Shown: positions 15,001 through 48,700 of the stretch, piece by piece | Layout: each line of letters opens with the position of its first letter | Numbering within the stretch: position 1 is the first letter of the stretch | NCBI RefSeq assembly: GCF_018977255.1 | Contig: NW_024704744.1 | Location: 80,228,001 to 80,292,000, forward strand | From: Callorhinchus milii | Lineage: Eukaryota | Reading direction: 5' to 3' | DNA length: 64,000 bases | Position numbers and translations under genes: made by a program | The notes under the pieces: model-generated | Seen by the model: only the letters and a program-made list of their open reading frames with translations | What the model was told of the DNA's origin: nothing | The model's database searches: none

Positions 15001-16576
15001 TGTCTCAAAGCACTTTACGCTGCTCACTGGTTACTTCACACTCGAGCTGGGACTTGGGAGCCAGGGGTGTGTGGGAAGGGAAAAGATGACTGACGGGTAC
15101 AATCAAAGAGGTAGATCTTGAATGAGGGGAGGGAGGGAGTCAGAAAGACTAAGGGTGGAGTTTCAGAGAGTGGAGCTGAACGCCATCTGAGTGAAAGGTG
15201 TAACCAGTCAGTAGAGTTGGAGGGCGTTGAAGAAGTAGGATCGAGCGAGATTGGAGGCATTTAAAGGTGAGAACAAGGATCTGCTTTATCTCGATCCGCT
15301 GGGGGAATGGGGAGTCAGAGAAGCCTAGCAAGGGTGGGGTAATAGGCTTGTGAAGGCTGGTGTGGGAGAGGACATGGGCGAGCAGGGTATTAGCGTAGTG
15401 AAGCCTGTTCATGATGTGAGGTTTCGGTGGCTTGAGGGAAATCAGTAATTACTAATTACACTTGTAACCATTTCTCGATGCTTCCACCCAGTATTGTTGT
15501 GGAATCCCGTAACGTAGTAATTTGCACCCTCACCACAAGTGAGAGGACTCAGATTTCATTCCCGGGCAAGGTGAAACCTTAGGCAAGTTTCCTTGATCCA
15601 AATGCCTTTGTTCACCTAACATATAATAATCCCTCAAAAACAGTTTGGTCAGTGAATCCATGACTATTTGTGGAACGTTGCTGGGTGCAATTGGCTGCCA
15701 TATTTCACGCACAAAATTCACTTTTCAATATATTCTGTGAAATACTTTGAGACATCTCAACTATGTGATGAGGCGCTATATCAAATGCAAACACCAGCTT
15801 AGCCCCCAGTGTGTCTTTATAGACTTCTCTATCAGGATTCACATTTCCTGCTTGTTCCCACATATACTATATTCCAAAACGCTATCAACAATGATATACC
15901 AATCAGTGAATTCACGATCGATCGCTGCAATGACAATCTCAAAGACAGATGCTGCAATTGCAATCCCAGTCAATTGCTGAAATCCCTTTCACTGAAATAA
16001 CGTGACCGTGCTGCTTTTTACAAAGAATGTACAGCACGGAAAAGGACCGCTCGGCCCAACCAGTTTGTGCCAGGACTGCTTGTGCTTTGCGTGTAGCATG
16101 CTGCGTTGTGTGTAGCGTGACCTGTGTATTTTTGTTACACAGGCTGAATGGATCGTATGAGGCTCTATCGGGTGGATCGACGACCGAGGGGTTTGAGGAC
16201 TTCACGGGGGGCGTGTCAGAGTGGTACGAGCTGAACAAGGCCCCTGCGGACCTTTTTCACATCATCGAGAAGGCGCTGAAGAGGGGCTCACTGCTCGGCT
16301 GCTCCATCAATGTGAGTAGCAACCTCAGAGCACAGAGACCCTGGGGGTGGCACGGCGACCCTGGGGGCACACAGCGACCGGTGGGGGGTGGGAAGGTCAC
16401 ACAACCATCCAGTGCCTTGGACACCTTCTGAGTGCACAACTAAGCCCAGCCCCTAGTTCTGGCACGCAAACCTTCACTCGCAGACATTACTATACACCCT
16501 GCACATGGTGGCACACGTTACCGTACTCTGCACATGGTGACACACACACGTTACTGCTGTGTACTCGGCACATGGT

Positions 16577-16613
<37 letters not shown>

Positions 16614-19600: not shown

Positions 19601-22600
19601 GAGCACCCTCATATAATCAATCGTTCTCTCTGCCCCTCCAACAGCCACCTTCTGGATGAACCCCCAGTTTAAGATGGTGCTGGAGGAAATCGACGATGAT
19701 GGACGAGGGGAGGACGGCTGCAGCGTCCTGGTGGCTCTGATCCAGAAAAACCGAAGGAACCTGAGGAAGATGGGCGAGGACATGCACACTGTGGGCTTCG
19801 CCATCTATGAGGCACGTCACTGTCCAGCCAGGGTTCAGAGCATGACGCAGACCAGTAGTAATAGTAGTTACGCTGCAGTTGAGTGTGGTGTGGTTAGGTT
19901 CTACTTAAGTTGTAGTTGAATAATGGTGTGGTTGAGTTACAGTGTAGTTAGTTTCCAGTTGAGTTACAGTGTAGTTAGGTTCCAGTTGAGTTACCTTCAT
20001 TAACCTGCGGGAGATCAAAGTCATAGATGGTAATTGGGGTATGGTGTAGTTACAGTATGGATCACTGTATGGATACACTAACTATTATTCTTTTCTCTGC
20101 AGGTCCCTGATGAGGTATGTTGGTTGCCATCTGACTCCTGTCTACGATCACTGGTCTGAGATTTAACCCTTATTTTTACTAGGTTCCTACTTACTGCTAG
20201 GTAAACAGAGATGTGTGGAATAAGGAAACTTGCCTAAGGTTTCGCCCTGCCTGTTTGACTGTTGGAGGAATGAAGGGGTTAGGTCGAGGGCCAAGCACTT
20301 CCTTACCCGATGTCACCAGTTGGGTGATATTTCACCTTTGTAGTATAGTCGTTCCTCATCCCAGGTCCCATATCCATGCCAGTCAGCCTCCTGACCTCTC
20401 TCCCTACTCCGCTACCGCTGCTTTTGTTCGGCTTGCTCTGCCCTCCTGCTTGACCCTCGTCCCTTCTACTCCATCATCGGCAGCCGCACTTTCAGACACT
20501 ACCCTCCAAAACTTTGGAACTCTCCCCCAAACCCTCCACCTTGCCCCCTCCTATCCCTCTTTTAGATCATGACTGAAGACCTTCCTCTTCAACTATGGTT
20601 ACTGTCACTTCCTTTCCCTCCCCTGTGTCGGCGCTGGGCTCCATCATTGCTAAACGCACCGAGATGCTGTCCTGTTTGAAAGGGCGCTATATAAATGCAA
20701 GTCATCATTGCTGTTGTTCCTGTGTATCATTTCACACTCACAGGGGTGAGACGTGAGGTGCCAATTATGCCATAGCAGAAATGGTCTGTTTGAGCGTGGA
20801 TTACATCATCTGGCCGACGTTGGGCTGGTGATGTCGGCGGGGGCTGTGGGCTGGTGGTGCCAGGGGGTGCTGTGGGCTGGTGATGCCGGCGGGGGCTGTG
20901 GGCTGGTGATGCCGGCGGGGGCTGTGGGCTGGTGGTGCACCTCCTGTCTTGTTCTCAGGGCTCAGAGTGCTATGATTGTCGCCTTCTGTACTCGGTGACC
21001 ATCCCATGTCCCTTCCTGTCCTGACAGTACAAAGGGGTCACAAACGTGCACCTGGAGAAAAGCTACTTCATAACACATGGATCAAAAGCACGATCCGAGA
21101 CCTTCATTAACCTACGGGAGGTCTCAGCCCGGTTCTGCCTGCCCCCCGGAGAGTACCTGGTTGTCCCCTCCACTTTCGAACCCAACCAAAATGGGGACTT
21201 TGCTCTGCGCGTCTACACAGAGAAACGGGCTGACACTCAGTAAGTAAATGGGGGAGAAATTGGTGTGTTGGAAGGATTCTGGGTGCGTTGGGGCGGCGGG
21301 GGGTGTCTAGGAGATAATCACTAAGAATGTGATGGGGTTGGAGGGGCTGGGCGACATGTTTTGGGGTGTCCCAGGTGCCGGGGCTGTTCCCAGACTCTCG
21401 CATACACTCACTGTGGGACATTAAGGCTCTCACATACACTTACTGTGGGACATGAAGCTCTCGGATACACTCACTGTGGGACAGCGAGGCTCTCTCTGAT
21501 TAATATCGTGTCTGAGGTCAAAAATTCTCTGTTCCCAGCACAATGGACATTGACCAGGTGTATGCAACCTTCGATGATGAGGTACTGTGTATGTCTACGT
21601 GTGCGTGTCTCTGTCTGTGCGTGTATCTCTCGCTCTGTGTGTGACTGTCTGTGTGTGTGTCTGTCTGTGTGCCTTTGTGTGTGTGTGTCTGTCTGTCTCA
21701 GAGTCTTTGTTTCTCAGACGTCTCCCCTTGTTTCAGGTTGATGTTCAGGAGTCCGATGTGAGCAGCAACTTCAGGAGTATGTTTGAAAAACTCGCTGGAG
21801 AGGTCAGCTCCCTTGAAGCGTCAACCTCCCCCCATCACTCTCAGCCTCTTGCACTCAATCTTCCACTCACCCTCATCCCCTCACACTCAACCTACCCCAT
21901 TCACTCTCCTCCCAATTCGCCCTCCGTTTCGCCCATTTACCCTCGTCCTTCCCTCCATTGCCCTCCCTCATTGCCCTCACCCCCCCTCGTCTTCACTCCT
22001 CTGTGTTCATGCCCTTTGACTGTAATGTGGGGGCGCAGGTTCAGAGGATGATGATAAGCCAATAGTGGTGGTTTTGGTTGTCAGAGCCGGAGACACTGAT
22101 GGGGCCAAGAACTGCTTTCCATCTCGTCCATATTTAATTTTAAGAAATTTTGTCTCATCCAACTAATGTTTGCTTCTCATCTGCTTAGGACAAGGAAATC
22201 TCGGTATTCGAGCTCCAGAAAATACTGAACAAAATCATGTCCAAACGTGAGTATCCGTGGCAAAGGCCATCCCAGACATCAGTCCACCATTCACATTCAT
22301 CTTTAATCATCAATAATCTCCCATTACCATTCTTTGTCAATGGGTCACAATCCTGAAACTCTATTTAACACATCATCAGTCTGGTTCGGTCAGAGGAACT
22401 CTTGCCTTTGAGTCAGAAGATTGTGGGTTGAAACTGCATCTCAGGGACTTTGAGATCAGTCCACACTGACAGTATTAGTGCAGTGCTAGGGATGTCCTGC
22501 ATTATCAGAGGTGCCATCCTTTGGACAAGACGTTAAAATTGTGTGGCACTACTTGGAAAGAAAAAGGAGTTTCTCTCTGTGTCTGGCCAACAATCTCTCC

Positions 22601-24241
22601 CCCCACCCCAAAAAAAAAAATTGGTCATTGACTTCATGGCTGTTGGTGGGATACTGCTAACCCCTCCTCTCCACAGGCACTGACATCAAGACGGATGGAT
22701 TCGGGCTGGAGTCGTGCCGCAACATGGTGCATCTGGTGGACGTATCTTTCTGTGTGCTGGGTGGGGGGGGGGGGTGGCCTAGGCGTGTGTGGGTACGCGC
22801 GTATATGCCCAGGGCATGGCTGGGGGAGCTGTTGGCACAGATTGATTTTCTTTAAGTACTTTGAAACAGAAAGACGGGAACGGAAAGATGGGATTGGTGG
22901 AATTCCAGAAACTGTGGAACAAGGTGCAGAAGTTCCTGGTGAGATCACGTCGCTCTGAGTTCATCTCATCGCCCTGGCTTCTCACCACCGCTTGGTGTGT
23001 CTGCATGCGTGGGGAGGGAGAGAAAAGAGAGTGGGCAGAGAGAAAGAGAAGTGGTGGGGGACGGAGGGGACAGAGAGACAGAGGGCGGATAGAGAGAAAT
23101 GAGGGAGAGAAAGGGAGGGAGTGGGATATGGGTGAGAATGGGGAGATATGGAGGGGAGAGAGTGCGGGAGGTTGGAGGTGGGATGCAGAGGGCAGAGAAC
23201 TGATGCTGGTTTTTATATTACAGAAAATCTATAAAAATAATGACCTGGATCAGTCGGGAACAATGAACTCGAGTGAAATGAGAGTGGCTGTGGAGGAGGC
23301 TGGTGAGTCAGAGCCCAGTGATTCTCATACAGAAACACCAACACATTCACACAAATGCTAATATAATAATAATCCTTGCATTTGATACAGCGCCTTACCA
23401 GGTCTCCGAGACGTCTCAAAGCGCTTCACAGAATATACTGTAAAATTAATTGACTATATTTTGTGGGCAAAATATGCTCACGCAGCCCAAAGTGTCATCC
23501 TCACGCTCCTCTGTCATCCTCACATTCATCCCACAGATTCACACACACCCTCACTCTTTTCTCTCCAGGTTTTCACCTGAATAATAAACTCTGTCAGATC
23601 ATCGTTTCTCGTTACTATGACAGTGACGACCTCACCCTGGACTTTGATAACTTTGTTTCCTGTCTTGTCCGCCTGGAGCTGGTGTTCAGTAAGTGACCCA
23701 TTTCCACCTGTTGTAGACTCAGGACTCCCAATTCCACTCAGCACAGAGTGGAGATTCCAAATCCCACTCGCCATAGGATGGGGATTCTGTGGGATGGGGA
23801 TTCCCAATCAGATTTGGCACAGATTTGGCATTCTCAATCCCATCCAATGCAGTGAGCAGAATTCTGTGGGGGTGGGGAAGGGAGGGGGTTGGGGCTACTT
23901 ATCAAAGACGCAGTCGGTCGAAGGACTCAGCTGGTTGGTAGGGGGGGTGCCTACATAGTCAGTTGGAGGGCAGAGAGCAGCGTCAGGCTCTGACTGCTTT
24001 AACTTTTTTTTTTGTAGAGTTGTTCAATTCTCTCCCCAAGGATGAGGAAGGATTCGCTCAACTCAGCATCCTGCAGGTGAGACATCAAGCTGCCTGCACC
24101 CCAGTCTCTCTCTGTCCCTATCTCCACACGTGTTTCGCTCCCCATTCCCACGTCTACCTCGCTGTTTGTCTATCCTTTTGCCCATGTTTGTCACTAAACC
24201 TAGGCATCTCTCCACAGTGGCTCACAATGGTATTGTGCTGA
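6021..24241 (+). CDS. CAPN2: Classical calpain large subunit, calpain-2-like, about 702 aa, 21 coding exons
   Basis: Exons 6021-6257, 7278-7347, 8579-8697, 14411-14544, 16143-16311, 16640-16723, 17655-17740, 17862-17936, 19278-19438, 19645-19811, 20103-20114, 21028-21239, 21539-21581, 21737-21802, 22189-22246, 22677-22741, 22870-22938, 23224-23302, 23569-23688, 24018-24076, 24218-24241 join in frame (2109 nt). Catalytic triad QGSLGDCW, KGHAY and RNPW; C2-like domain ([23 protein letters not shown]); penta-EF hands ([24 protein letters not shown]). [12 protein letters not shown] is CAPN2-like. Exact orthology (CAPN2, CAPN8 or CAPN11) needs a tree. Confidence 0.9.
6315..6980. repeat. C-rich low-complexity array (CCACCACTCCC)n in calpain intron 1
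   Basis: Visible tandem degenerate units; G-rich on the minus strand. Confidence 0.9.
7036..7270. repeat. 22-bp minisatellite CTCTGTGGTCTCTGACCCTCAC-like
   Basis: About 10-11 tandem copies running up to the exon 2 acceptor. Confidence 0.9.
8740..9330 (+). repeat. Unclassified dispersed repeat family, copy 1
   Basis: GAAACCCATCAC..GCTTAAGA(A/G)TATCCAAACC..GCTTGGGGAC..TTGTCCAGCTAGGACCAC recurs at about 13940-14250 (-), 44480-44900 (+) and 46245-46520 (+). Confidence 0.7.
10645..13030 (-). mobile_element. Degenerate L2-clade LINE ORF2 with a nested 5'-truncated L2 at about 11563-11915
   Basis: [29 protein letters not shown] and NYRPISKL motifs with frameshifts; two L2 3' tails (about 10645-10690 and 11563-11630). 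Confidence 0.9.
13040..13462 (-). mobile_element. CR1-clade LINE 3' fragment
   Basis: [31 protein letters not shown], a typical CR1 ORF2 C-terminus. Confidence 0.85.
13550..13815 (-). mobile_element. SINE (3' part)
   Basis: (ATA)n-ATCCTTGCATTTGATATAGCGC tail and Deu-like core in reverse. Confidence 0.8.
13940..14252 (-). repeat. Unclassified dispersed repeat, inverted copy of 8740-9090
   Basis: Its reverse complement matches TCAGCCAGGTGTCTGACACA...CCCATCACC and GTCCAGCTAGGACCAC. Confidence 0.7.
16955..17570. repeat. GC-rich minisatellite (GAGGGCGCCAGCCAGGCGGGGGGG)n in calpain intron 6
   Basis: About 25 units of 22-24 bp with variable G-run length. Confidence 0.9.
18126..18406 (-). mobile_element. 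tRNA-derived SINE
   Basis: Reverse complement begins GGAGTCCTGTAGCTCAGCGTTTAGAGCACTCGCC. Confidence 0.8.
18614..18930 (-). mobile_element. tRNA-derived SINE
   Basis: A and B boxes (GTAGCGTAGTGGTTAG, GGGTTCGATTCC) on the minus strand plus the L2-type tail. Confidence 0.85.
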
Positions 24242-25095: not shown

Positions 25096-28000
25096 CTATT
25101 TACACATTACCTGCTCTCCTGCAGAGGGTGAGAGAGAAGGTAGGGAGAAATAGAGAGGAAAGTAAAGGGGGGTGGGAGAGAGAACAGGGGAAGTTTTGTT
25201 AGTAGACTGCAGGAGTCAGAGCGCACACGCTGGGCAGTCAGAGATGATGGGATCGTCCTCAGTGTCTCCAGTCACTGGGCTTGGAGACCTCGTGGTCAGC
25301 TGCTGATGGAATGAATGGATGGAGGCCAAGTTGTCAAAGCTGCTGCTGTTGCTGTCACTCCACGTCCAGGACCTGCAGAGCTGAGCAAGGAGGAAAGTCA
25401 GACAGGGGACTCTGGCCAGGCCATGCAGTGATAGATATTGCTGCGTGGTATGGGCTAGTTTTGTGGCCCCGCGCTGTTGTGTCACTCACCTCTGCGTTGT
25501 TTTATGAGTGCTGCCCGGCGAGCTCTGACTTCCTCACTCAGCGTCTCCACCATTCGGTCGATGCAGCTGTCCAGCACCACGGAGCGTGTCTGCGAACAGA
25601 TTGGCTGCCGGCACATCGGACATTCCTGCTTCCGTTTCCGCCACTCCTCGATACAGTGGCTACAGAAGCTGTGTGAGCAGTTGAGTGTCACCGCCTGTGC
25701 GAAGACACTCCTGTGAGAACGGAAGACGCGCACACAGAAGAAGAGACACACACAGCACGAGAGAGAGAGAGACAGGCACCCACAAATAGTGCAGGAGAGA
25801 CACACAGACAGAGAGCCGCACACAGACAAAGAGACACATGAGAGCCATGCGCACACACACACACAAGAAAGATTTGAACCACAAAGTGAGTGAGAGGATC
25901 ACTCGTAAACACAAAGCAAGAGAGATATATACACACACACACAGCTGGAGAAATGCACACACAGCCTTTACCTGGATGAAGTGCTCGGAGCAGATGATAC
26001 ACTGCAGTTCATTTTCCAGCACGTCTGTGATCTCAGCGATGGCTTCCCGTCTCTGTGCTTGCTCCTTCTCACTCTGGAACACCAGAATCCAATGTCAGCC
26101 TTGTGCCCCCTACACACACACTGGCCAGCTTCCCCCCCATTGCCAGCAGCCTCCTCATACCCCCCACTGCCAGCCCCCTCCACATATCCCCACAATGCCA
26201 GCCCACTCCACATACCCCTCCCACTGCCAGCCCCCTACACATACCCCCACCACCCATACGCCCCCCACCACCCATACACCCCCCACCACATTGCCTCTCC
26301 CCCACATTGTCTCTCCACACCCAAACCCTGTTCCACCTATAGCGACACCCAGTAACCCCCACACCCACCCTGCCACATCCACACTGCCTCCCCCCACACC
26401 TGCACCGCCCACCCCCACAACAGCATTGCCCGACCACACCTGCACTACTCCCCTACCCAGACCGGAATCACCTTCCCCCGCTCCCTGTGCTGGATACTGA
26501 TCATCTGATGATGTTACCTTGCTCTCCTCCAGCTCCCGGTCCTTTGATTTAATGATCTCCTCCAGCTCCCTGCGCTGTTGCTGTAGAGCTGCTTCCAGTT
26601 CCTGATGTTGTCCCAACAAAAATAGTATCAATACCCCTTCACACAGCATGTGCCAGCCTCCCCACCCCATGGAGTGTGCCAGCCTCCCCACCGCACGGTG
26701 TGCCAGGCTCCTCACCACACACTGTGCCCATCTCCTCACCACACAGAGTGCCTATCTCCTCACTACACAGTGTGCCCATCTCCTCACCACACAGAGTGTG
26801 CCAGAACCCGCCCTTACACCCGTGAGGGAAAAAGGAAGAGTCAAATATATTTCAGGAGGGGAGGAAAAACTCAGAACTGTGGAGAGGAAGTAGCACAGAT
26901 TCATTGGTTGTGAGCAGCTGTGAGGTTGGGGATTGGAAAGAACTGGAACAGGCTATGTTCATTGGAGTAGAAGTGAAGAGTGGACATCCAGTTAATAGCA
27001 ATAATGAGACTATACACACACACGCGCCACACAACCTCACCTCCAGCTCTCGCTTCTCTGAGCCGGACCTCTCTCGCTGCTCCAATCTGTGCCTCCTTCT
27101 CTGTCTCTGCTCCAAGTTTGGCTTCTCTCTCTCTCGCTGCTCCATGCTGGGCCTCTCTCCCTCTTGCTGCTCAGCACTGGGCCTCTCTCTCTCTCGCTGC
27201 TCCGCACTGGGCCTACCCCTCTCTCGCTGCTCCAGGCAGGGCCTCTCTCTCTTGTGCTGCTCCAGGCAGGTCCTCTCTCTCTTGTGCTGCTCCAGGCAGG
27301 GCCTCTCTCTCTCTCGCTGCTCAGCACTGGGCCTACCACTCTCTCGCTGCTCCGGGCAGGGTCTCTCTCTCTCTCGTTGCTCCGTGCTGGGCCCCTCTCC
27401 CTCTTGCTGCTCATTACTGGGCCTCTCTCTATCTTGTTGCCCCGTGCTGGGCCTACTCCTCTCTCGTTGCTCCGGGCAGGGCCTCCCTCTTGCTCGCTGC
27501 TCCGCAATGAGACTCTCTCTCTCTCGCTGCTCCGCAATAGGCCTACCCCTCTCTTGCTGCTCCGTACTGGATCTCCCCCTCTCTTGCTGCTCCGCAATGG
27601 GCATTCCTCCCACTCGCTGCCTGTGTTCCATCTTGCGCTCTCTATAGCATTGTCCCCATGGCTCTGTTGCCATGCTGTCCTGGCTTGAAACTCTCTGGTG
27701 AGTTGGTGGCAGTGCAGCCTCTACACTGGTCCCTGGCATCTCGCCAGCTGCCATTGGTTGGGTCAGTTCACATCTGGACTCTGAGCTCTGGTCCCATTTT
27801 TCACACCTGGAGTCTGTGCTGCAGGACGATTTTTCCTTACATCTGGAGTTCGAGCATCCGCTCTGCTCCTCGTTCCTGGAATCTGAGCTCCAGTCTTCCT
27901 CACAGGACACTCGTGGCACTTTCCATTTTGGATGGGGTACCTCCTCCCGACTGTGCTTGCGTTTGGTCCGGCTGCAGTGGCTGCTGCGGTTGGAGTCCTC

Positions 28001-29314
28001 GCTCTCCACTGGCGCCTGCCTGTCTTGTATTAACTGGTACTCATACTCAGCTCGCTCCCTGCCTTCCAGAGGAACACCCAACTGCAACCGGTCCCCCTCC
28101 TGCACCACGTGCGGCACCAGAGGCTCAATCAGCACACCATTGATCCGCACTCCGTTCACGCTCTGCAAGATAATAATAATCTGGCATTTGATACAGCCCC
28201 TGCAATATCCAAAGGTCTCAAAGGGCTTTGCATGGAATTGCTGTCAAGTTTAGTGATAGTGTAGTCACAAACAAATATAACAACCATTAAATTAATGACC
28301 TATTTATCGGGGGGGGGGGGGATTGTTAGCCAGGACATCAAGAGAAACTCCCTTCTCGAATAGCGCTATAGATCTTTAACATCCACCTGAACAGGTAGAT
28401 GGGGCCTCGGATTAACGTCTCATCTGAACGACAGCGCCTCCCCACCAATGCAGCACAACGTCAGCACTGGAGGGTCAGTCTGGACTTTGATCTTAAAAGT
28501 CATGATGTCGCGTGGAGAGAGCTGAACCCGGTATCCAGCCCAATGCTACAGATGTCCTGGGCGTACAGAATAGAAACCCGAGGAAGGTAGACACAGAGTG
28601 GGAGTAACTTATACTCACTGTTTGGCAAAGGCCAAGACAAGTTCTGAGGACGGGGCTGAGGTCCTTACCCCCCCCCCCCCCCTCCCTTACCTTGTTATCG
28701 GTCACTGTCCACTGCCCATTTGACGCCAGGCGGAGTGTGCAGTGGTTCCTGGAAATCATCAACGGACAGGTCTTCGCAAACAAACGGTAGGTGACATTCA
28801 GCCCTCTGCCAAGTGTTACCTGAACACAAAACGTTAAGTCGCAGTAACAATAATAATAAAGCTTTGCATCTGACACACACCCTTATCGAGTCGTTGAGAC
28901 GTCACAGAGCGCCGCGTTGGGGTTTCAGTTTAGACGACGGTGCAGTTTCGAGTCTGACGTCTGGGGCTCAGACCCACAATCTTCTGCACTCGGGGGGTGG
29001 GGGGAGGGAGGGGGGGAAGGGGAGGGGGGGGGAGGGGGGGGGAGAAGGCCGCTCCCACTGCGCCAACTTCACCTCCAGTGTGTGGGCTTCACTTCCCACA
29101 GCGGGAGAGAGAGAGACCTGGAAAGGCAAGTGCCCGGACAGACAGACAGACAGACTGACTCAGGCTCCCTCACTGTGTCCATGTCCCCCCCCTATGTGTG
29201 TACCTCTTCCCTCGGGCTCAGTAAGAGTCGCTCCGTGTTTCCCGGTTCCACTCGCTGTAAAAACCAAACGCTCTCCGGCCCCCCGTCACCTCCCGGGCGC
29301 CTCTCCGCCGCCAT
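25096..29314 (-). CDS. RNF8: E3 ubiquitin ligase RNF8 (FHA plus RING), about 590 aa
   Basis: Exons 29314-29204, 28819-28691, 28162-27041, 26601-26518, 26073-25972, 25694-25490. The terminal exon is probably 25118-25096 (alternative 25372-25296). FHA motifs VTLGRG, CPLMISRNHC, DNKSVNGV, LQLGVP..AEYEY; RING LENELQCIICSEHFIQAVTLNCSHSFCSHCIEEW..CPMCR. Confidence 0.92.
27070..27600 (-). repeat. Coding 30-bp tandem repeat (EQRERERPSA-like) in RNF8 exon 3
   Basis: About 17 in-frame units, e.g. EQQERGRPIA, EQRERERPCL. Confidence 0.9.
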
Positions 29315-29329
29315 CCCCGAGCCCTCCAG

Positions 29330-29600: not shown

Positions 29601-31369
29601 AGGGTATCAAACAACAACAATCCTTGCAGTTGCGTTGTGAGGCGTCTCAAAGCGCTTCGCAGGATTGACTGTATTTTGCGGGTGAAACACGGCGCACTAT
29701 AGTGTCCCACAAGCAGTCGTGGTTTTGAGTAGCCAAAATATTTTTTGAAGGGATCATTACCCCAGAAAGCAATCTGCCAAACGACTAGCAACCGGGTTCC
29801 TATTTAAGCCTGGCAAACAGGTGTGAAGGGTAAGGAGACTTGCGTAAGGTTTCGTCCTTGCCAGGGAATTGAATGACCAAATAATGGCTGTGGGTGGGTA
29901 AGTGTGGTCTACTCGGCTGAAATGGCCCCAAGGTGATAGGCTTGACAACAGGATGCCAAATCAAAATCAAGTCCGGCACCCACTGTGACAGTCTTTACTC
30001 CAGTTCCTCATTTAGGCGGATCTGCAGCATTCTGGGGCACAGACCAGCCAAACTGGTTCATCACCAGGACTTAGTTTTAGTTTGCTTTTCACCCACAGGT
30101 GTATCACAGCTTCAGTCTTCTCATTTGACCTCCACATACACACACCAAACACCGGCAGACTTTGGAAAGCAATCATAAGCTGTACTCTGGTTGATATCTC
30201 TCCCTAATTCGAGGATACTGAGGCCATTTGTAGCCCAAGATGGGATCAGTAACTCGAGGGTGGAGTCTGGGACCAATCGCAGGACTAGGGAGCGCCACTC
30301 ACTGAACAATTGGAGCTGTAACCAATTGTAAAGTCGCCTGAAGAATGGCCCATTGGGACAGAACAATGACATTGACAGTACTGAAAACCATTTGTACACA
30401 TTATATCTGTGCTGCTCTGTCCCGTTTACCTGTCTTTTCCCTTACACCCCTGCAAAATGATCTTTTAGATACCTTGATGTCAGCCTGGCTCAGTCAGCAG
30501 CACTCTCAACAGAACCAGAAGATTATGGCTCAAGCCTCACGTTGGGACTTTGAACTCACATAGTAAAGGCTGACACCCCAGTGCAGTGCTGGGGCTGTGT
30601 TGCATTGCCGGAGGTGGTGTTCTTCAGATGAGACATTAAGACAGAGGTTCTATCTACCTGTTCAGGTGGATTTAAAAGATCCCATTGTACTATTAGAAAA
30701 GAGAATGATTTCCCATCATCCTGGCCAATAATCCCCCAAATAAAATTGGTCATTCACTTTATAGCTGTTTGTGGGCATTGCCTTTTGTGGGTTTGTCAAT
30801 CTGCTTAAACCCCACTCCTTTACCTGCCCTTTGCTCAGCTGACTCCAGCTCCCCATGTCCTTTATCCCTTTCACTACATCATCAGCGGCTGTGCTTTCCG
30901 CCTCTAAGCCCCCAAAACTCTGAAACTCTCTGGATCAAATCCTCTGCCTCGCCCTCACGCCTGAAGACCTTCCTCTTCATCCACGCTTATGGTCACCTCC
31001 CTCTTGTCCTTGGCTCGGTGTCAAGCTCTACCACTGTCAAGCACTCCCGAGATAATAATCCTTGCATTTGACAAGCGTTGCATTTGATATCATCGCTGAG
31101 CCGGAACTAAGAGTTCCACATACGTGCGTCACATACATGCGAAAACTTCCCATGTGTCTGGAAGGAAACGTACTGCTTGTCCGGCTCGGACCGCCTTACC
31201 CATTAGGGCTTTATGGTGCAAGGCTATCAGAAGCTGAGTGGGAAAATACCCAGTGACTGGACATTAACACGAGGCTGACGCTTGACACAGTAACAGTTTG
31301 GGCAACGTCAGGTGAAGCCTGACTGAGCCCACAGGGCAACAGCCACACACCATCCTCCCTGCCCTGAGC

Positions 31370-31760
31370 CCGGCTCTGGGGCGAGCGATCAGCCACTCGC
31401 GCTCTCGGGATGGACTGGTTGGGTCTGCGGCTGGAGCTGAACCCTATTGGCGGGCGGTGGTCCCCACGTGATTCAGGCCCCGCAGCCAATCGGCTGAGAG
31501 CAGGAAAGTTTCGGAGGGTTTTTTTTTCTCCCCTGAAGTTTGTCGGGGGATCCGATCTCGAGTGCCGGGAACCTGCCGTTCCCCCCCCCCCGGAGCTCGC
31601 GGGAGCTCACCGCGACTCACCGGCTCGCGGTTCCCCGCTTCATTTTTACCGTTGGTTTCGGGCGACAAATTTTGGAGAAAAAAAAGTGCAACTTCCTGGT
31701 CCGGGTTTAGGGCACTGACAGCTGTCAATTCCGGGAGAAACCAGACCCAAGATTCCGGGA
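31370..31760 (+). promoter_or_regulatory. CpG-rich promoter candidate for the MGAT2-like gene
   Basis: CpG-dense; ATTGG 31446, GC box GGGCGG 31452, E-box CACGTG 31465, CCAAT 31486. Confidence 0.6.
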
Positions 31761-31896
31761 CCCTACCCCTGGACAAACAAACCCACCTCCCGGGTGCTCC
31801 AGGGTGGGATGCGGATGGTGGGCTTGGGCAGGACTTTGAATCAGTTGAGTTGGGATTAAAACGGTATTTGCACAGGAGAATTTCCAGCAGAATTTT

Positions 31897-31928
<32 letters not shown>

Positions 31929-32182
31929 CCTTGCATTTGATGTAACGTCTTATCACCTCGTCGCGACGTCTCAAAGTGCTTCACAGGATTATACTGTAAA
32001 TTGTTTTTGACTGTGCATTTACAACGGAGTTTGTTTGTTTATGCTATATATTTACACAGAATTGTAGCAGATTTACACCGAGATTGTGATAGATTGACAC
32101 CGTGATTGCGGAAAGAATTACACGCAGGGATTTTAGCAGATTTCCACAAAGATTACGTCCAGAGTCGAGGTGTGATCTGAAA

Positions 32183-33445
32183 ATGAAGTTCCGGGTTTAT
32201 AAACGGAAGATCCTAATCTTGGCATTGGTTGTTTGTCTGCTTTTGTTGCTGATTTGGAATCGGTTGCATTGGGATACGAGGGAAGTTAACACTCGTTTCG
32301 ATGCAGCTTTGATGGTAGAAGAGAAAGAAAGTGGGACTCCCAAATCCTCTCAGGAGCTCGAGTCTTTACCCTACAACAACCCCTTGGAGCTGAGAAATGC
32401 CGTCTATCAAAATAACTTGCAATTAACAGTGCTAAACAGGGAGAAGTTCCACCAGCAGCCAGAGTTGGTGCTGGTGGTGCAAGTCCAAGGTGGGACGTCT
32501 AACCTCCGGATTCTGATCGAGTCGCTGCAGCAGAGCCCGGACATAGACCGAGTGCTGCTCATCTTCAGCCTGGAGCAGCTATCCCACGATATTACTCACC
32601 TCATCCAGAGGGTCGACTTCTGCCAGGTGCTCCAGATCTTCTTCCCCTACAGCCTGCAGCTATATCCTTTGGAATTCCCTGGTCAGGACCCACAGGACTG
32701 CCCCAGAGATATTTCCAAAGAGGAGGCGCTCAAGAGAAGGTGCAAAAATGCAGATTATCCTGACTCTTTTGGACACTACCGGGAAGCGCAGTTTACCCAG
32801 TCCAAGCACCACTGGGCGTGGAAGCTGCACTTCGTATGGGACCATGTCCTGGTCAACACCAACTATACTGGACCAGTCTTCTTCATAGAGGAAAACAACT
32901 TCCTGCTCCCAGACTTCTACCATCTTTCCAAGTTAATGACTGACCTACAGAAACAGAAATATCCCGATTGTCACATACTGAGCCTGGGCAGCCATGAGCC
33001 AGCTGAGCTGGACTCAGATGTAGCCAGGAAAGTGGACATCATGGGCTGGACAGCCACCAAACATAAAATGGGTATTGGCCTAAGCAGAGAGGTGTACAAC
33101 AGTATCATGCAGTGCCTGAGTGCATTCTGCACCTATGATGACTACAACTGGGACTGGACAGTGCAGCACATCTCTGCCCAGTGTCTGTCTCGGCCGCTCA
33201 AGGTAATGGTGCCCAGGTTAGCTCGCATCTACAATATTATGGACTGTGGTGCCAAAGAGTGTGACCTGGGTACCAAGGAAAAGAACATGCGGAGAGTACT
33301 GGAGTCTGCCCGCAGGAGCTTGTTCCCCACTTCTCTAAGCATTGGGCTCAGCCAAATCGCTGTCCCTCAGAGGCCTCACACTAAAAACGGGGGCTGGGGT
33401 GATGTGCGGGACCACAGCCTGTGTCAGAGCTATTCCAAGCTGTAG
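32183..33445 (+). CDS. MGAT2: MGAT2-like (GnT-II, GT16 family) type II Golgi membrane protein, 420 aa, single coding exon, with a degenerate metal/donor site
   Basis: N-terminus MKFRVYKRKILILAL plus a TM segment; FCQVLQIFFPYSLQLYP.EFPG.DP.DCPRD, YPDSFGHYREA, FCTYDDYNWDWT, NGGWGDVRDHSLC. Likely a paralogue rather than the orthologue. Met 32183 matches the family start. Confidence 0.88.
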   Translation: MKFRVYKRKILILALVVCLLLLLIWNRLHWDTREVNTRFDAALMVEEKESGTPKSSQELESLPYNNPLELRNAVYQNNLQLTVLNREKFHQQPELVLVVQVQGGTSNLRILIESLQQSPDIDRVLLIFSLEQLSHDITHLIQRVDFCQVLQIFFPYSLQLYPLEFPGQDPQDCPRDISKEEALKRRCKNADYPDSFGHYREAQFTQSKHHWAWKLHFVWDHVLVNTNYTGPVFFIEENNFLLPDFYHLSKLMTDLQKQKYPDCHILSLGSHEPAELDSDVARKVDIMGWTATKHKMGIGLSREVYNSIMQCLSAFCTYDDYNWDWTVQHISAQCLSRPLKVMVPRLARIYNIMDCGAKECDLGTKEKNMRRVLESARRSLFPTSLSIGLSQIAVPQRPHTKNGGWGDVRDHSLCQSYSKL

Positions 33446-33649
33446 ACAGCGCAGGAGAAAACAATTCGAGGAAAGAGCCTGAGCAATAGCCATGGCTTTC
33501 CCTCTTCTAATGTGTTAAAGTTGTTTGAGGGGTGGTGTTTTAATGTGGTGCCAAAGAATGGGGTTTAAGGGGAGTACTACAATATTTGCTATGATGCCAT
33601 GTGGTAGTGTTTACTTTCCATATTCAGTGAGTGGAAGCAGTAGTCAATG

Positions 33650-34437: not shown

Positions 34438-34523
34438 AATAAAGCCGAAATATCTGACGGTATCTTGCCAAATTTGTACTCAGAGAATTTAAATCAGATG
34501 TAATCTCTTTCATTGATAATAAA
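34438..34523 (+). terminator. Candidate poly(A) signals (AATAAA at 34438 and 34518) for the MGAT2-like gene
   Basis: Two canonical hexamers about 1 kb after the stop codon. Confidence 0.5.
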
Positions 34524-39700: not shown

Positions 39701-42700
39701 TGGGTAGTACTCTATAATAATACTCACATTTGATAGAGTGCTTTATCGTGTCGTTGATATGTCTAAGTAAGTTTTACTATTACTGCTGTTTTCCCAGAAT
39801 TGTTCCACAAACAGCTATGAAGTGATTGATTATATTTTCATCTAGGGAATTGTTGACTAAGACACTGTGAGAAACTCCCTTCTCTTTTCGAATAATGTCG
39901 TGGTATCTTTTACATTCATCTGAACAGATAGATAGGACGTATTTTAATGTCTCATTAGAATGTCTCCTTCTAATGAGACATTAAAATACGTCCTATCTAT
40001 CATCAATGCAAGTCCCCCCCCCCCATCCCCAGCACTGCATCGGAGGGTGGGCTTAGACTATAAATTCAATAGTTGAGTCACTAGGCTTGTCATGTTTCTG
40101 TTTTTAGATGAAGATGGGTTACCGTGAAGGTGCAGGTCTGGGTAAGTTTGAACAGGGCCGGAAGGACATTGTAGAAGCCTCAACACAGCGAGGCCGTCGA
40201 GGCTTGGGGCTGAAGCTGAAGGTGTTTGACCGAGAGCTGAATGTGCAGTGGCAGGATGATGGGCAGAAGTCTGACAATCTCAGTGTGGCTTCCTCCAGTT
40301 TTCTGGTGAGTCCTTGTGCACATGAAGGGGAGGAGTGTGTTTATACGTGGGTTTGGTATGCCCCTTCACATGTGAATAGGTGACGGCTGACTCCATGCAA
40401 TGTGGTTTTGTTTATTGACTGACTGGTTGATGGGACAAATGGTTTACTGGTTAGTTGGTTGGTCTGATGGTCGATTTTTCCACTTTCTGATTGGTCAGGC
40501 TGGCTGTTCGTTTGGTCTACTGGTTAGTTGGCTGGCTACTTGGTTGGTTGGCTGGCTACTTGGTTGGATGGCTGGCTGACTGACTGGCTGGTTTGAGTAT
40601 TTTTCAGACACTTGCGGCCCTTGTGTGACATGTTCTGCCTTGGTTTGCAGCCCAGTGTATACGAGCAAGTGGATTGGTTTCCTGAGTGCTCTGTGCCAGT
40701 GCCGGATCTAGTGGAGCTGCGGGATTGGATGGTGATCGGAAAGGTACAATGACTGGGAAAGTAGGGGGCTAGGAGAAGTTAGGCTTTGCTCTTGTATTAT
40801 GTTGAGAAAAGCCTAGCAAAATATCTAACTCTGGTTATGTCACTCAATAGCGCAAAGAGGAGATCGAGGATGAGACAGAGTTCTGTGCTGGAGAGTTGCT
40901 GAAGAATATGCTACGGTGTAAGGTTGGTATGTGACTGGAGATTTCTTCAGACAGGGAGAGGTGGGTGGAAAGGGCTTACAGAACATTCTCAGCCCCTCTC
41001 CATTCCAGAATCATCTGCCTGATACGTGTAGTGTTGGGTGTGTCAGAGGACTGTAGAGCTGAGATTTGGTAGTTTGGGCTCATCACATTAGCGAGTGAGA
41101 TAATTACCAATGGGAGAGGAACATGGATATGCCACTGCCTGAATTTTGGATACTCTTTCAATGTTCTGATTTTAACTACCGTGGAGTCATAGGGGGCAGA
41201 GTTCTAATTATCCGGAAGTAAATTCATTTATCTATTATGCATGTTTTACTTAGTATGAAGTTATTTGAAGTTGAGGTACAGATCAGCCATAATTTTATAG
41301 AATGCTGGAACAGGCTCGAGGGGCTGAATGGCATACTCCTGTTCCTATGTTGGTTTATTTGTATTATATTTAGTGTGTGTGTATATATATTACATATCTA
41401 TGGATAAAAGTATGTGGGGGAAAGAGCTATAACTACCTTGAAGGGGGAGAGGTGGGGGAGATGTAACTATACTAGATTGGCTGAGCAGTGGAGATATGTT
41501 ATGACAGGAGCTGTGTCTGGGGTTGTTGTACTGTGTTGTGGGTGCAGTAAAACCCCCGCATATTCTGCATCTTGTCTGTGATTTCAGACTGTGTTTGACG
41601 AGCTGGAAGGAGAGGAAATGCGTCGGGCCCGAACCAGGTCCAACCCCTATGAGACCATCCGTGGTGTGTTTTTCCTTAACAGGTATTAATGCTAGCTCAG
41701 AAATAATTTTGGCTGCCTACCTCCCTGCCTCCTTCCCTTCCTGGGTTTGGGACCATATGTGTGTCATTGAACCGTCTTAAAATTCTTCATATAGTTTACT
41801 ATAGAGTGTACTGTACTTACTGACTGTAATTCGTAGGCAAACTAAATACTGTTTATATTCTGTGAGCGTGTGTGTCTGTGTGTCGTGGGTATGCGATTTT
41901 GGGTGTGGGGGTTGTCTTTATGAGTGTGCATTTGTATGAGGCTCAATCGCATGTGTGTGTGTGTGTGTGTGTGGAAAGCGTTAGTTCACCCAGCTCTGTA
42001 ACTTACCTTTTCTTTCTCTCCAGAGCTGCCATGAAGATGGCAAACATTGACCATGTATTTGATTATATGTTCACAAATCCAAAAGACTCAAACGGGGTGA
42101 GTGTTTCTCCAGCAACCCTGCAATTGTGCTTGTATCAACCAGCCTTTACCAAGTCCCACAATTAAGGGGCTCCAGAGTCTTACTCGGATTATTGACCAGG
42201 ATACTGGGAGAAACTGCCTTTTCTTTTCGAGTAGCAAGTCATCATCAATTTGAGATCCACTTAAGAATAAAAGTAAGAGGTTAGGAGAATCTTTTTGCAC
42301 AGACGGTTGTTAGGACATGTGATCCCAAAGCAAATCTGCTGGTTGAAGCAAAATCTATAATAGCTTTTAAAAAGGAATTAAAGATTCGAAAAGGAAAAAT
42401 CATAATAGGGTGTGAGGGAAAGGGCAGGGGAGAGGACTAAACAGATTAATCTTTCAAAGACACGACCTAGATGCGATGACCTCCTGTGTATAATATTATG
42501 ATTCTGACTGTGTGTAATTCAGTTAACCTTGAACCTGCCTGTCTCACCATATCTGCACATGAACTGTGTGCCACAGTGTCGCTCGCTTATTCGCTCTCTT
42601 GGTACCCGAATGTTTTGTGATTGTCTGTTCCCTAGAAACCGCTTGTTCGGGATAAGGACGCAGAGTTGCTATATTTTGCTGATGTGTGCGCGGGTCCTGG

Positions 42701-45700
42701 AGGATTCTCTGAATATGTGCTGTGGCGGAGGAGGTGGAACGCCAAGGGCTTTGGCATGACACTGAAGGGACCCTGCGACTTTAAGCTGGAGGATTTCTTT
42801 GCCGCATCCAGTGAGATGTTTGAACCCTACTATGGTAAGTGGTGATGGCAGCAAGTCAAGGTTGGCCACAGAGCACACAACTGTGTGAGAAACAGCCCTG
42901 GTTCCAACCACCTGTCTCTGTTTTCATAGTTTTCAAACCCATCCTTCAATTATTTTCCCCAGCCCATTTCAATGGGCTTAGCTCCCCTGATATCTTTTAC
43001 TTGATTCTATATGGTCTTATCCTTTGCCTAATGTACATCCTCTCTGTTTTCCCTGCAAGCTTTGTGAACCCTTTTCTAAATTTTACCTTTAAGTTACTGT
43101 TTTGGAGTATGTTTCTTTGATTTGCCCCTGCCGGACCTCCCTCCACAAGCTGCAGGTCATTCAGAACTCTGCAGCTCGTGTACTGTCCCGCACCAGGCTT
43201 TGCGACCACATCACTCCCACCCTCGCTCGCCTCCACTGGTTCCCCATCCCCCAGAGGATCAAATTCAAGATCCTCATCCTCATCTACAAGGCCATTCACA
43301 GCATTGCTCCCTCCTACCTCTCCGACCTACTATACCTCTACATACCTGCCCGTACCCTCCGTTCCTCTGGCACCGGTCTGCTTCACATCCCCCGCCCTAA
43401 CCGCCCTACCATCGGTGGCCGGGCTTTCAGCCTCAGCTCCTAGGCTCTGGAACTCCATGCCCCAGTGCCTTCGCCGCCTCCTCCCTTTCCTCCTTCAAGG
43501 CCGGTCTCAAGACCTTTCTCTTCAACCGTGCCTACACCTCCCCTCTTGACTCTCTACCCCCTCCTCGCTCCCTCCCTTCCCTCCCCTCAGCCTGACCATT
43601 TCCCCCCTGCTCGGGTCCCGACCCAACTGTCCAGCGCCTTGGGACGTTCTCCCGACGTGAAAGGCGCTCTATAAATGCAATCTTGTTGTTGTTGTGGACT
43701 TAGGCTTAGAATAATCAAATGTTACAGTCTAGAGACAGACCATTTGGCCCATGATGGTTTTCTCCACATAAGCCAATCTAATTCTTCTTTCCTGTTTGCT
43801 ACCCATACCCTTCTCAGCTTGTTATGCATGCTTTGAGTAATGTTTTTGAAAGTTGCGTATATCTCTTTGGCTTATTTATCCCTGAGTAGTTTGAAGGAAC
43901 AAGGAAGGTCCCACTTATTGAATTCTTGGAGTAAAATGCTTTTAATAATATAACCAATCCTAGTGGTTTTACTCTATACTGCAATCTTCCCACTCTTGTG
44001 TGATTTGTATGTGGTTGTTTACCAGGTGAAGGAGGAGTGGATGGGGATGGTGACATCACACGGCCAGAGAATATCAGTGAATTTCGGCGTTTCGTGCTGG
44101 AGAATACTGAGCGAAAAGGTGTGCACTTCATAATGGCAGACGGGGTAGGTGTGTGAGCGACCAAGCCAGTCTTGCTTTCTGTTAATGATGTCAGGTGAGA
44201 GGGCAAGCTCTCTCCTGCAGAAACATAGCAGAGTTTGTGAAAGAGAGGGAGAGCAAGCAGGCTCCTGTAGAAACACAGTACAAAGAGAGAGAGAGAGCAC
44301 TCCTGTTATGGCAGGAGTGCTCCCCCTCTCTCTCTCGCTTGAGAGAGAGAGGGTGAGTGCTCCTGCCGTGACACAGAGCAAGCTAGAACGATTGCTCTTG
44401 ACAGAGAGAGCATGCAAACTGCTGTGACCTAGACAGAGAGCCTGCCCTGACCAAGAGAAAGAGAGGCTGCTCTGATAGAGACCAGAAACCATTGTGGATA
44501 CTCAAGAGTATCCAAACCAGACTGAGTTCCATGGATGCCACTTACAAATGAAATATTCCCTGTGTTTGGAATGGATTGTGCACTCTCTCCCTACAATAAT
44601 GTACCCTGCTTATGTAATTCGGACAGTGTTAGGCGCAGTTCGGCAACATCCAGGGCTTGGGGACACCATAGTGTGCATTGGGATACCGCTAGAGTTTAAC
44701 CAGCATTGAAAGCACTGTCTGGCAAGCTTCTCACTTGTTGTCCAGCTAGGACCACAGTACCTGTTAGGGCTTTGCTATGCAGGAGCAAATTGGGAAAAAT
44801 TCCTGCCCCAGTGACCAGTGTCCTGTCAACAAGCCAAGCTGGCTGGCTTCTTAGCAAGCAGCCCTGGAGTACTGCAGACTTGTCTGGTTCAGGAAACAGA
44901 GTATGCGTTAGGATAAATATAGAATTTAACCAGCGAAAACTATGTAGCTTGCTGTCTGGCATGGTTCCGCTGTTTGGAACTGAGTGGGAAGAATCCCTGC
45001 TCCCAGTAGTACAGGCCAATTCCTACCAATGAGCTAGGCAAGATCCTGCTGCAATAGAGCCGACAACTGCTGAGTACAATCCTGTAGTAATGCTGCAGAA
45101 ATGCTGAGAGACAGCTCATGTTCCACATTTCTCGCTGTATTTATCCCGTGTGTGACCTGCTGACATCTCGCTTTCATCCTCTTTCACTCTTTCTCTCCTT
45201 CCCTTTTGTCTAGGGTTTTTCTGTGGAAGGACGGGAGAACCTACAGGAGATTCTTTGCAAGCAACTACTACTGTGTCAGTTTCTGGTGGCACTGAGTATC
45301 CTCAGGACAGGTAATAAACCCAGGATTTACTTGCTCAGCTTTTGGTTTACAGCCAGACTGCTGTCACCAATTAACCCCGGTTGTTGCAGTAACTGCTTTT
45401 GAGTCCATTTGGAGTAACAACTTGCATTTTTATAGCACCTTCATGTGAGGTAGCATCTCCGAACACTTGACACCGAGCCAGGAGGAAGACAAAATAGAAC
45501 TAAATGGGTTTAAAAGATCATATGTGATCTAATAATATTGTACAGGCTTGATGGTGATGTTCCCGGGTTCCTATGTCCCGCTGTGTAATAAAATAAATTT
45601 ATGTTTATAAATAGTGCACCCCTGGTGGATGTCACAAAGTGGTTAACAGCACTGGCTTGGCATCCACGCTGGAGTTTGGTAGCCGAAGGGGGTAGGGAGG

Positions 45701-48700
45701 GGGAAAATGACCAAAAGCACGTCAAAGAGATTTTGAGACTGATCTTAAATTAAAGAACCCAAGACAAATGGAAAGGGGGTGTGGCCGAAGTTGAGTTGTA
45801 ATGTATTAAGCCTTCACTATCTGCTGCAGGCTACCTTGGGTCTGTGGTCAGGGATGTAAAACCTTTTCTTTTTCTGCCACAGGCGGTAATTTTCTGTGTA
45901 AAACCTTTGACCTGTTCACGCCATTCAGCGTGGGGCTAATTTACCTGCTGTACACCAGCTTTGAGAGAGTCTCGCTGTTCAAACCAGTAACCAGCCGTCC
46001 AGCCAACTCCGAACGGTGAGTAGCAAGCGTCTCATTCTCCCCACTGCACAATGGATATGTATGTTTGCCTGCAGCCGAGCATAAACTGCAGATTGTTACT
46101 CGAAGAGTTATGGGGGATATAAGAAGAAATGTTTTCAAGCAGAGGTTTATTAGATTATTTAAAAATTATTTAGATATGTATTTGAAAAAGGATATAAACT
46201 CATACTATAATGTGAAAGGAAAGAGCAGAATACATAAATGACTGACACAGACAGAAACCCATCACTGTGTTAAAGAGTAAGTAAATCACATAGAGCTCTA
46301 AATATGTGTGCCACTTAAACTTAAACATAGAAATTTCCCAGATTCTGGAGAGTATTAGTATTGCTTACCTAATTCTGGAGTATTAGGCTCAGATTGGTTA
46401 GAGCTTAGGCTTGGGGACCCCAGAGAGTGAATGGACCCTAGAGTCTAACCAGCTAATACCACATAACTGAGAACATTGTCCAGCTAAGACCACTCTATCT
46501 GTTAAAGCTTTGGCTTCCAAGGCTAATCCTTGCCCCCAGTGACTGATGTGTCAGCTTGGCTCTGGTAGCCTCTGAATTAGTAGGTTGTGGATTCAAGTCC
46601 CACCTTGGGGCTAAGCTGACACTCCAATATATATGTCCACCTTCCTGGCAGTTGCATGCACATATATCCCAAACCACCTATGTACTACATCCATAATGTT
46701 ATTTCCTAAAAGAAAACTATCTGTGTTTGAAGGAATCAACATTTCCTGCTTCAACTGTCTCCAGAGAGAACCTGTTCCACAGGTTTACTATTTGCTCACT
46801 GAAATATTTTTTCCATATTCTTTTAGTTCAGAATTTACTCCCCTTCAATTGCAGGCCGTATCCTTTGGTTTTATTATTCTGGACTAGTTGAAACAGCCTG
46901 TCATGAGCTACACTGTCTAGCCCGTTTAGAATCTTAAAGACAGGAATCATATCGCCTCTCAGTTCTCTCTTTACCAGCATGAATATGCCCAATTTACTTA
47001 GTCGCTCCTCATAGTTTGGTCCCTCAATCATTCTGGTTGCCCTCCTCTGAATCCTCTCAATTTCTCCCATATATACAGCGGCAAGATGACCCCATTATTT
47101 TAACTTGCTATTGATCTTTTGATACATCTCAACGTCTGGTTTGTTTTACTCACTGCCACAGAGCATTTTTGCTGTCAAGCAGAACCCCCTGGTCCTTTTT
47201 ATTTTCCATACATATCATTTTCCTTCCATTAAAATAATAGTCCCTGCCTGGATTTTTTTGTCCCCAAGTGAAGTAACTACATTTTTCCACAATTAATTTC
47301 ATCTGCCACCGACTGGTCTGCCCAATTCCCAAGTGTGTTCAAATCCTCCTGTAACCTATCATGATCAGCTTTGCAATCTACCACCTTCATTAGCTTGGTA
47401 TCATCTGCAAACTTAGCCACAGTGCTTTTGACTCCTAATTCCAGATCATTTATAAAAATATTAAATAAAAGAAATTCCAAAACAGACCCGTGTGGAACTC
47501 CACTAGTAACATTTTCCCAGTCTGATGACATTCCCTGTACCACAACCTTCTGGGTTTCTCTGGTCAATCAGTTGCGTATCCATTGTAACATCATTCCACT
47601 GATTCCCACTTTATTTACTTTCAGTACCAGCCTCTCAAGAGGAACTGTATCAAAGTCCTTACTGAAATCCAGATATACAACATCCATAGCCTTCCCCTTA
47701 TCAAGCTCCCTTGACACACCGTTAAAGAAAAACAGTAAATTGGATTGGCAAGACCACCGCTTCATGAATCCATATTGGCTATAATTTATGATTTTATTTT
47801 AGTCCAGGTGCACCATGATTTTATCCTTAATAAGAGTCTTCAAAATTTTACTCACACTGGACGTTAAACTTGCTGGTCTGTAGTTTCCTGAGTCACTTTT
47901 GTTTGCTTTCTTGAAAATAGGAGTAACATCTGCCTTTCTCGAGTCCCCCGTCACGTCTCTGACATTCAGCGATTTTTGAAAGATTTGTGCCAGCATTTCT
48001 CGACTTTCTCCCTTAGTTCCTCAAGAATCCTCGGATACAATTTATCCGGCCACTGAAATTTATTTACCTTAAATTTCACAGCTGTTTGGAAACCATGCTG
48101 GTAGTGATCTGAATAGTGTCGCAACTTTCCTCTGCGACATCCTTGTGTTGTCTTTCCGGATCAGATAGGTTACCCATCTTCTCCTTAGCCTGTGCAACAT
48201 TATTTGCCATGTCCTCTCCCGAACCCACCTTCAAGATGCTGGCCAACAATCCCCCCAAATAAAATTGTTCACTCGCTTCATGGCTGTTTGTGGAATATTG
48301 CTGTGCCCAACTGGCTGCCACATTTCATCCACAAAATATAGTTAAAAAACACTAAAGTAAATCCTGTGAAGCGTTTTGAGGCGTCTTGTCGACGTGTTAA
48401 GCTGTATCAAATGCAAGGATTATTATTATTATGATCTGCCCCTCCAAGTCCTTCCGATGAGCCAGACTAGCTGGTCTGTCATCAGTGGTGCCCAGGTGTA
48501 CTACAGACCCATCTGGCACAGGAACCAGACCACTGAGATTGCCACAGTGGGTTGATTCAATTCCAATAGTAGGTAAGAGTAGATAAGGTTAACTTCACCG
48601 GACCATTAGCACCAGCATCAAATGCAAGAATAATAGATATGAAGTCTAAAATGTGTGGTTGCAGTCAGGCTATCCATTGGAGCTGTGACTTATTTAGTGG

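Follow-up and report, generated by a model that had tools for sequence, protein, structure and literature searches.

What does a second MGAT2 do once residues of its metal and donor site have been replaced and those of its acceptor site kept? The question is raised by an MGAT2-like paralog of Callorhinchus milii, a single-exon open reading frame of 420 aa that belongs to the si:ch73-91k6.2 clade and lies on the forward strand at 32183..33445 of the window (the whole stretch of 64,000 nucleotides analyzed here). A sequence-only reading had described an uninterrupted 420-aa frame with a transmembrane anchor, and this description is borne out: the list of open reading frames and the translation contain no interruption at 32183-33445 (+), and a type II transmembrane anchor is predicted at 32210..32266 (+; aa 10-28), a stretch with a hydropathy of 2.7 over 19 aa that forms a helix in the predicted model. 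The product matches the PF05060 MGAT2 profile over positions 1-349 of 349 (E 2e-135) and aligns with human MGAT2 (5VCM) at E 3e-118. All motif changes named in the sequence-only reading were found in their places, as were the retained YDDYNWDW and NGGWGD motifs, and the cysteine framework that it proposed holds for nine of ten cysteines, the exception being C283 (human numbering), which is Tyr, as in horn shark. At this site (32960-32971, aa 260-263) both chondrichthyan copies have C286 without its usual CxxC partner, and W235A and S314A are also common to the C. milii and horn shark proteins. Human numbering follows P0112, a primate protein of 447 aa; its R198, H221, E224 and D347 carry the same numbers in PMC7014118 and PMC7185993.

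The changed codons recur in other samples. Contigs of runs X1 (31936-33640) and X7 (31971-33568) span every one of them without conflict, and the only coding variants relative to the window are a silent site (33061) and E359Q (33257); this comparison used four of 18 matching runs, from other studies. The UniRef entry A0A4W3GSQ7 (Callorhinchus milii, 'si:ch73-91k6.2') is the same protein save E359Q. An assembly error was rejected as the source of the motif changes, the same codons being present in other samples and in the database protein P0002. The gene had been credited with a CpG promoter of its own; a separate CpG-rich stretch does lie upstream, with a CpG observed/expected ratio of 0.69-0.92 across 31000-32500 vs 0.40 for the window, distinct from the CpG stretch at the RNF8-like first exon, and its part at 31000..32182 (+), which carries two CCAAT-type boxes (~31445 and ~31487), remains a candidate promoter and 5' UTR. 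Four upstream ATGs fall within the presumed 5' UTR (31809-32043), the in-frame one at 31940 being followed immediately by TAA, and a TAA microsatellite lies near 31900-31930. Directly 5' of the start codon, at 32179, runs X1 and X8 have a two-base insertion that is absent in X7, a UTR polymorphism altering the start context. No splice joint was found in 30900-33640 among the compared runs, which are only guessed to be RNA. Poly(A) signal sequences are present as had been noted, in the form of two AATAAA hexamers at 34438 and 34518 (34438..34523, +), candidate signals ~1 kb downstream.

A search of the C. milii genome for a second copy with the canonical EEDH motif found one: there are two MGAT2 matches, the window gene and, on contig C9, an ORF of 445 aa in which QVHNR, SHD, EEDH, HNMG and RIFH are all intact. 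This canonical copy confirms the paralog status that had been given to the window gene and rules out that the latter is the sole MGAT2 of the genome. In the window, calpain exons (Peptidase_C2, Calpain_III and EF-hand, of a classical calpain; 14411-23358, +) lie upstream of an RNF8-like FHA/RING gene (25485-29320, -), and the MGAT2-like gene sits between the latter and a G-patch/FtsJ/WW gene (40108-55131, +), two genes that point apart; CCDC167 is found downstream in the neighborhood. These neighbors come from domain matches for 354 of 741 frames, picked by complexity and position, in the C. milii genome only. From their domains, we take the two flanking genes to be RNF8 and CMTR1, which presumably stand in tandem in human without such a gene between them. 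An MDGA-type MAM exon lies ~36 kb beyond the stop codon of the MGAT2-like gene, and another ~323 kb from the canonical copy, which is flanked by an LRR1-like gene and a PIH1-domain gene. Because both MGAT2 copies sit near an MDGA gene, on different contigs, the two pairs suggest an origin by whole-genome duplication (ohnologs); the two loci presumably match human 6p21 and 14q21. The two C. milii proteins share 49% identity, with dN 0.48 and saturated synonymous sites, values that reflect a long-term average only, and a recent retrocopy or young duplicate is ruled out by this identity, the saturation and the depth of the clade. The single coding exon of both copies is in line with PMC3548309, where human MGAT2 is listed among orphan retrogenes. 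Elsewhere in the window there are reverse-transcriptase fragments of LINE-type repeats (47280-47798, -; 3779-4378; 10679-12853), in part RVT_1 profile matches, the remaining ones judged from translations.

In trees of 40-42 rows hand-picked from database matches, canonical and MGAT2-like proteins form two jawed-vertebrate clades, each with a support of 98-100, and lamprey falls outside both. The comparison with vertebrate MGAT2 that had been proposed thus recovers a separate MGAT2-like clade with the C. milii protein inside it at 100/100, and still at 99/99 without the donor columns; C. milii and horn shark are sisters (100/95). The C. milii gene is a member of an old jawed-vertebrate MGAT2 paralog. 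As a reference for intact proteins we used 160 rows, drawn from the best 120 of 433 and the best 120 of 842 matches together with four representatives and the C9 copy, and left out nine visibly changed proteins (C. milii, P0003, P0089, P0178, P0179, P0184, P0324, P0325 and P0331). The sequence-only reading had counted H262N among the active-site lesions, but N stands at this position in 106 of the 160 intact rows; H262N is therefore the normal state of the MGAT2-like clade and was discarded as a sign of enzyme death. H125, R127, D154, D261 and H374 are all kept in 105 of the 106 N262 rows and in 53 of the 54 rows that lack N262. Leu in place of the SHD His occurs in lungfish and coelacanth as well. 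Judged by their motifs, two GT16 genes that look functional seem to be present in lungfish, coelacanth, sturgeon, gar and most teleosts; zebrafish has an intact-looking MGAT2-like gene and a canonical Mgat2 (P0153, P0057), whose entries both give 59,305,174 as the length of the longest contig, so that the two perhaps lie on one chromosome. Among the matches listed there was one shark ortholog, that of horn shark, and no amniote ortholog; a search of shorter proteins for truncated shark orthologs gave 11 matches, none above 48% identity, and in the ESM Atlas the frog protein matched MGAT2-family clusters only.

Five motifs on the donor side are altered in C. milii. QVHNR reads QVQGG (32480..32494, +; H125Q, N126G and R127G), with loss of the phosphate-binding Arg, which we take to be R127, and SHD reads SLE (32567..32575, +; D154E), presumably at a uracil contact. 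LEEDHY reads IEENNF (32885..32902, +), so that EED becomes EEN by D261N and a metal ligand is lost, next to the clade-normal H262N; HNMG reads HKMG (33062..33073, +; N318K), with a basic residue at a position that is invariant in the intact clade; and RIYNIM (33224..33241, +) has H374N and G376M, H374 being what we assume to be the C-terminal metal His. R127 is Arg in 159 of the 160 reference rows and Lys in one, and Gly in C. milii; H374 is His in all 160, and Asn in C. milii. Half of the broader donor set stays unchanged, namely the five residues Q123, Q229, H233, E259 and E260. Also retained are the acceptor exosite loop with R198, D217, H221 and E224 (32705..32785, +; aa 175, 194, 198 and 201) and YDDYNWDWT (33134..33160, +) with Y344, W346 and the catalytic base D347 (aa 324, at 33152). 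The site roles that we attach to H125, D154, N318, H374, D217, Y344 and W346, like the number of the conserved Arg that contacts the alpha-phosphate, are our assumptions about MGAT2. According to PMC7014118, a conserved Arg contacts the donor alpha-phosphate in GnT-II and D347 is the catalytic base, contacting the alpha1,6-mannose; the last Asp of the DxD-type EED motif is described there and in PMC7948508 as a metal ligand, and R198, H221 and E224 as an exosite for the terminal GlcNAc in PMC7185993. Mn2+ use and the exosite in MGAT2 are also covered in PMC13383617 and PMC12448869. Set against what an active GnT-II has, the C. milii protein lacks the EED Asp, the alpha-phosphate Arg and the C-terminal metal His, and has the base D347 and the exosite. 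In other GT-A families, water can stand in for a missing C-terminal His (PMC7185993).

The losses are lopsided. Across the 96 columns that are invariant in the 160 reference rows, C. milii changes six of nine donor/metal positions (H125Q, R127G, D154E, D261N, N318K and H374N), none of seven acceptor positions and six of 80 others (p 1e-4), a clustering on donor and metal residues that goes beyond chance, as the sequence-only reading had proposed, in a test that is partly circular for this single protein, the donor column list overlapping the observations of that reading. Further changed copies, taken from a representative search (best 150 of 1108), include the frog Hyperolius (donor 7/9, acceptor 0/7 and other 11/80 changed), the pipefish Entelurus (3/9, 0/7 and 6/80) and P0184, which groups weakly with lamprey (5/9, 0/7 and 14/80). 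Pooled over these three, the excess of donor changes has p 1.6e-6 against other columns and p 1.6e-5 against acceptor columns. Two Nerophis pipefishes change four and two of nine donor positions, the second non-significantly (p 0.22), and no acceptor position in either. Horn shark is intermediate (4/9, 0/7 and 8/80), with D261 and N318 kept and R127K, and its protein may still be active. Acceptor positions are lost in the caecilian Rhinatrema (donor 6/9, acceptor 6/7 and other 29/80, together 41 of the 96 invariant columns) and in the teleost copy P0089 (donor 4/9; acceptor 2/7, H221 and D347); the role of the gene, if any, is therefore dispensable. C. milii, frog, Entelurus and P0184 all have changes at R127, D261, N318 and H381, and six columns are changed in at least three of these four lineages where 1.1 would be expected (p 0.00025). 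The pipefish loss is independent, because in the tree the changed copies fall within a group of intact ones from seahorse and Syngnathus. For frog and chondrichthyans, the free tree joins their copies (99/92); grouping the amphibians with lungfish and coelacanth is rejected with all columns (p 0.038) and not rejected once donor columns, caecilian and P0184 are removed (p 0.153), and the two losses may well be independent. A moray-eel MGAT2 of the canonical clade, P0054, has D154E, E260D, N318K and H381Y, which are similar changes in milder form. As the alignments and trees stand, the disarming is lineage-specific and recurrent, within an old paralog whose catalytic motifs are intact in most bony fishes.

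Because donor residues are lost while the exosite and D347 are retained, we lean towards the view that the C. milii protein is a folded Golgi pseudo-enzyme, probably still under selection to bind the GlcNAc-Man3GlcNAc2 acceptor but no longer transferring sugar to it. Deprived of donor-side residues for metal and phosphate but with those for the acceptor kept, this second MGAT2 would bind the GlcNAcMan3GlcNAc2 intermediate in the Golgi, and conversion of the bound intermediate by canonical MGAT2 would be slowed or channeled, tuning N-glycan branching. Preservation of the fold, which the sequence-only reading had expected, agrees with an AlphaFold2 model (pLDDT 85.2; TM 0.90 to 5VCS, by target), a predicted GT-A fold like that of 5VCM and 5VCS. 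Complex prediction with the canonical copy scored 0.00 in two runs with alignments unused, which speaks neither for nor against binding.

Could the gene simply be a redundant ohnolog in slow decay, released from catalysis, with weak selection against misfolding holding the frame and no present function? The MGAT2-like clade is the faster one (67.5% identity between C. milii and horn shark vs 80.9% for the canonical proteins), the caecilian copy is far decayed, the matches listed include two copies from chondrichthyans and none from amniotes, and release from selection may have been recent. When the intact C9 coding sequence was mutated at random (3000 runs, indels ignored), a median of 0.42 changes per site was reached before six of nine donor codons differed, by which point ~12 stops had arisen and 56% of codons had changed; one run of the 3000 was free of stops. 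Because ~12 stops are expected, yet the C. milii ORF has none, neutral decay fails to explain its pattern. Slow decay also sits poorly with the 74 of 80 other invariant columns and seven of seven acceptor columns that are kept, with intact ORFs of like pattern in frog and three pipefishes, and with a GC content by codon position like that of the canonical copy, and we regard it as unlikely.

Rather unlikely, too, in our estimate, is that the protein serves, without catalysis, as a scaffold, chaperone or inhibitor through protein contact with MAN2A, MGAT1 or MGAT2 and keeps its acceptor residues for folding or by chance. Such a role would suit the anchor and predicted fold that C. milii retains, and the literature offers precedents in the assembly of MGAT1, MGAT2, MGAT3, MGAT4B and MAN2A2 in Golgi membranes (PMC6453868) and in the inhibition of MGAT1 by the luminal domain of MGAT4D (PMC4572887). 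It is at odds with the behavior of R198, H221, E224 and D347, residues that C. milii, horn shark, frog, three pipefishes and P0184 keep and that disappear freely from other GT16 proteins with a dead donor site. R198, D217, H221 and E224 are all kept in 49 of 87 distant GT16 proteins with an intact donor site; among 16 donor-dead ones (nine with letters at all four columns), only three vertebrate-like proteins keep all four, and D347 is retained in three of the 12 distant ones. Because the exosite and D347 are often lost in distant GT16 proteins, the acceptor residues are not simply structural; D217, D343 and W346, kept nearly everywhere in GT16, may be. The acceptor retention over background is modest, at a pooled p of only 0.037, which leaves some room for a scaffold. 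The twelve distant proteins (P0281, P0285, P0289, P0291, P0298, P0300, P0312, P0313, P0315 and P0317-P0319) lack at least three of five donor residues and usually also the exosite and D347, and are possibly further pseudo-enzyme groups. A protein-contact role also recalls COSMC, which according to PMC7185993 lacks DxD and xED, whereas the C. milii protein keeps D347. The catalytic base, together with E259, E260, H233 and the exosite, would also serve an altered enzyme that is metal-independent or uses another donor, with Lys318 (Arg in amphibians) taking over the phosphate in the manner of GT14. Metal-independent GT-A enzymes have Arg or Lys instead of DxD (PMC7948508), and C. milii has gained a Lys at 318 and lost R127. 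We consider this quite unlikely, since the phosphate Arg is gone (Gly in C. milii, Ser in frog and P0184, Ala in pipefish) and the replacements, which differ between lineages at N318 (K in C. milii, R in frog and caecilian, S, A) and at D261 (N, G, A), fit released constraint better than new shared chemistry.

If the acceptor is indeed bound, as in the pseudo-enzyme that we favor, the gene would be a naturally occurring dominant brake or chaperone at the one step committing N-glycans to the complex type, and its changed copies a natural mutant set that separates donor chemistry from exosite recognition. More tentatively, the ancestral job of this undescribed second jawed-vertebrate GT16 gene might include retaining the hybrid N-glycan intermediate independently of catalysis; in chimaeras, in amphibians and in pipefishes (and in a lamprey-side copy) it might have been reduced, separately each time, to a Golgi lectin controlling the hybrid-to-complex step by binding glycan, not protein. 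Where MGAT2 deficiency is modeled in zebrafish or medaka, the effect of an mgat2 knockout could be masked by the intact second copy. GnT-II is described as the sole GT16 member in most metazoans in a review (PMC7014118); here vertebrates have a second member that is intact in most fishes and has been disarmed several times in a lopsided manner. We found no paper on a second vertebrate MGAT2 in the open-access literature, and subscription papers or supplements may cover it.

Dead glycosyltransferase paralogs are known (COSMC, MGAT4D), and the gene is already annotated in databases as an MGAT2-like enzyme. Its nearest relative in kind is MGAT2/GnT-II itself (GT16, PF05060; 5VCM, 5VCS), which it resembles in its predicted fold (TM 0.90), in 45-48% identity, the type II anchor, the single coding exon, the exosite R198/H221/E224, the base D347 and nine of ten cysteines, and from which it differs by EEN, by the replacement of H125, R127, D154, N318 and H374 and by a separate clade and locus. 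With bony-fish si:ch73-91k6.2 it shares the clade (100/100), the UniRef name, N262, H294 and K316; unlike the N262 rows, in which H125, R127, D154, D261 and H374 are kept in 105 of 106, C. milii keeps none of the five. COSMC/C1GALT1C1 (GT31) is likewise a dead GT-A paralog kept as a non-catalytic partner (PMC7185993), but a chaperone without DxD and xED, whereas the C. milii copy retains the catalytic-base Asp, D347, rather than having lost both motifs, in a loss that is patchy across lineages. The close evolutionary precedent is MGAT4D/GnT1IP, also an ohnolog of a branching enzyme and, according to PMC12616123, active in medaka and inactive in mouse and mammals. MGAT4D belongs to a different family (GT54), and the analogy is functional only: it has lost its lectin domain and acts through protein contact, whereas the C. 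milii MGAT2-like protein has lost its donor site and keeps its acceptor site.
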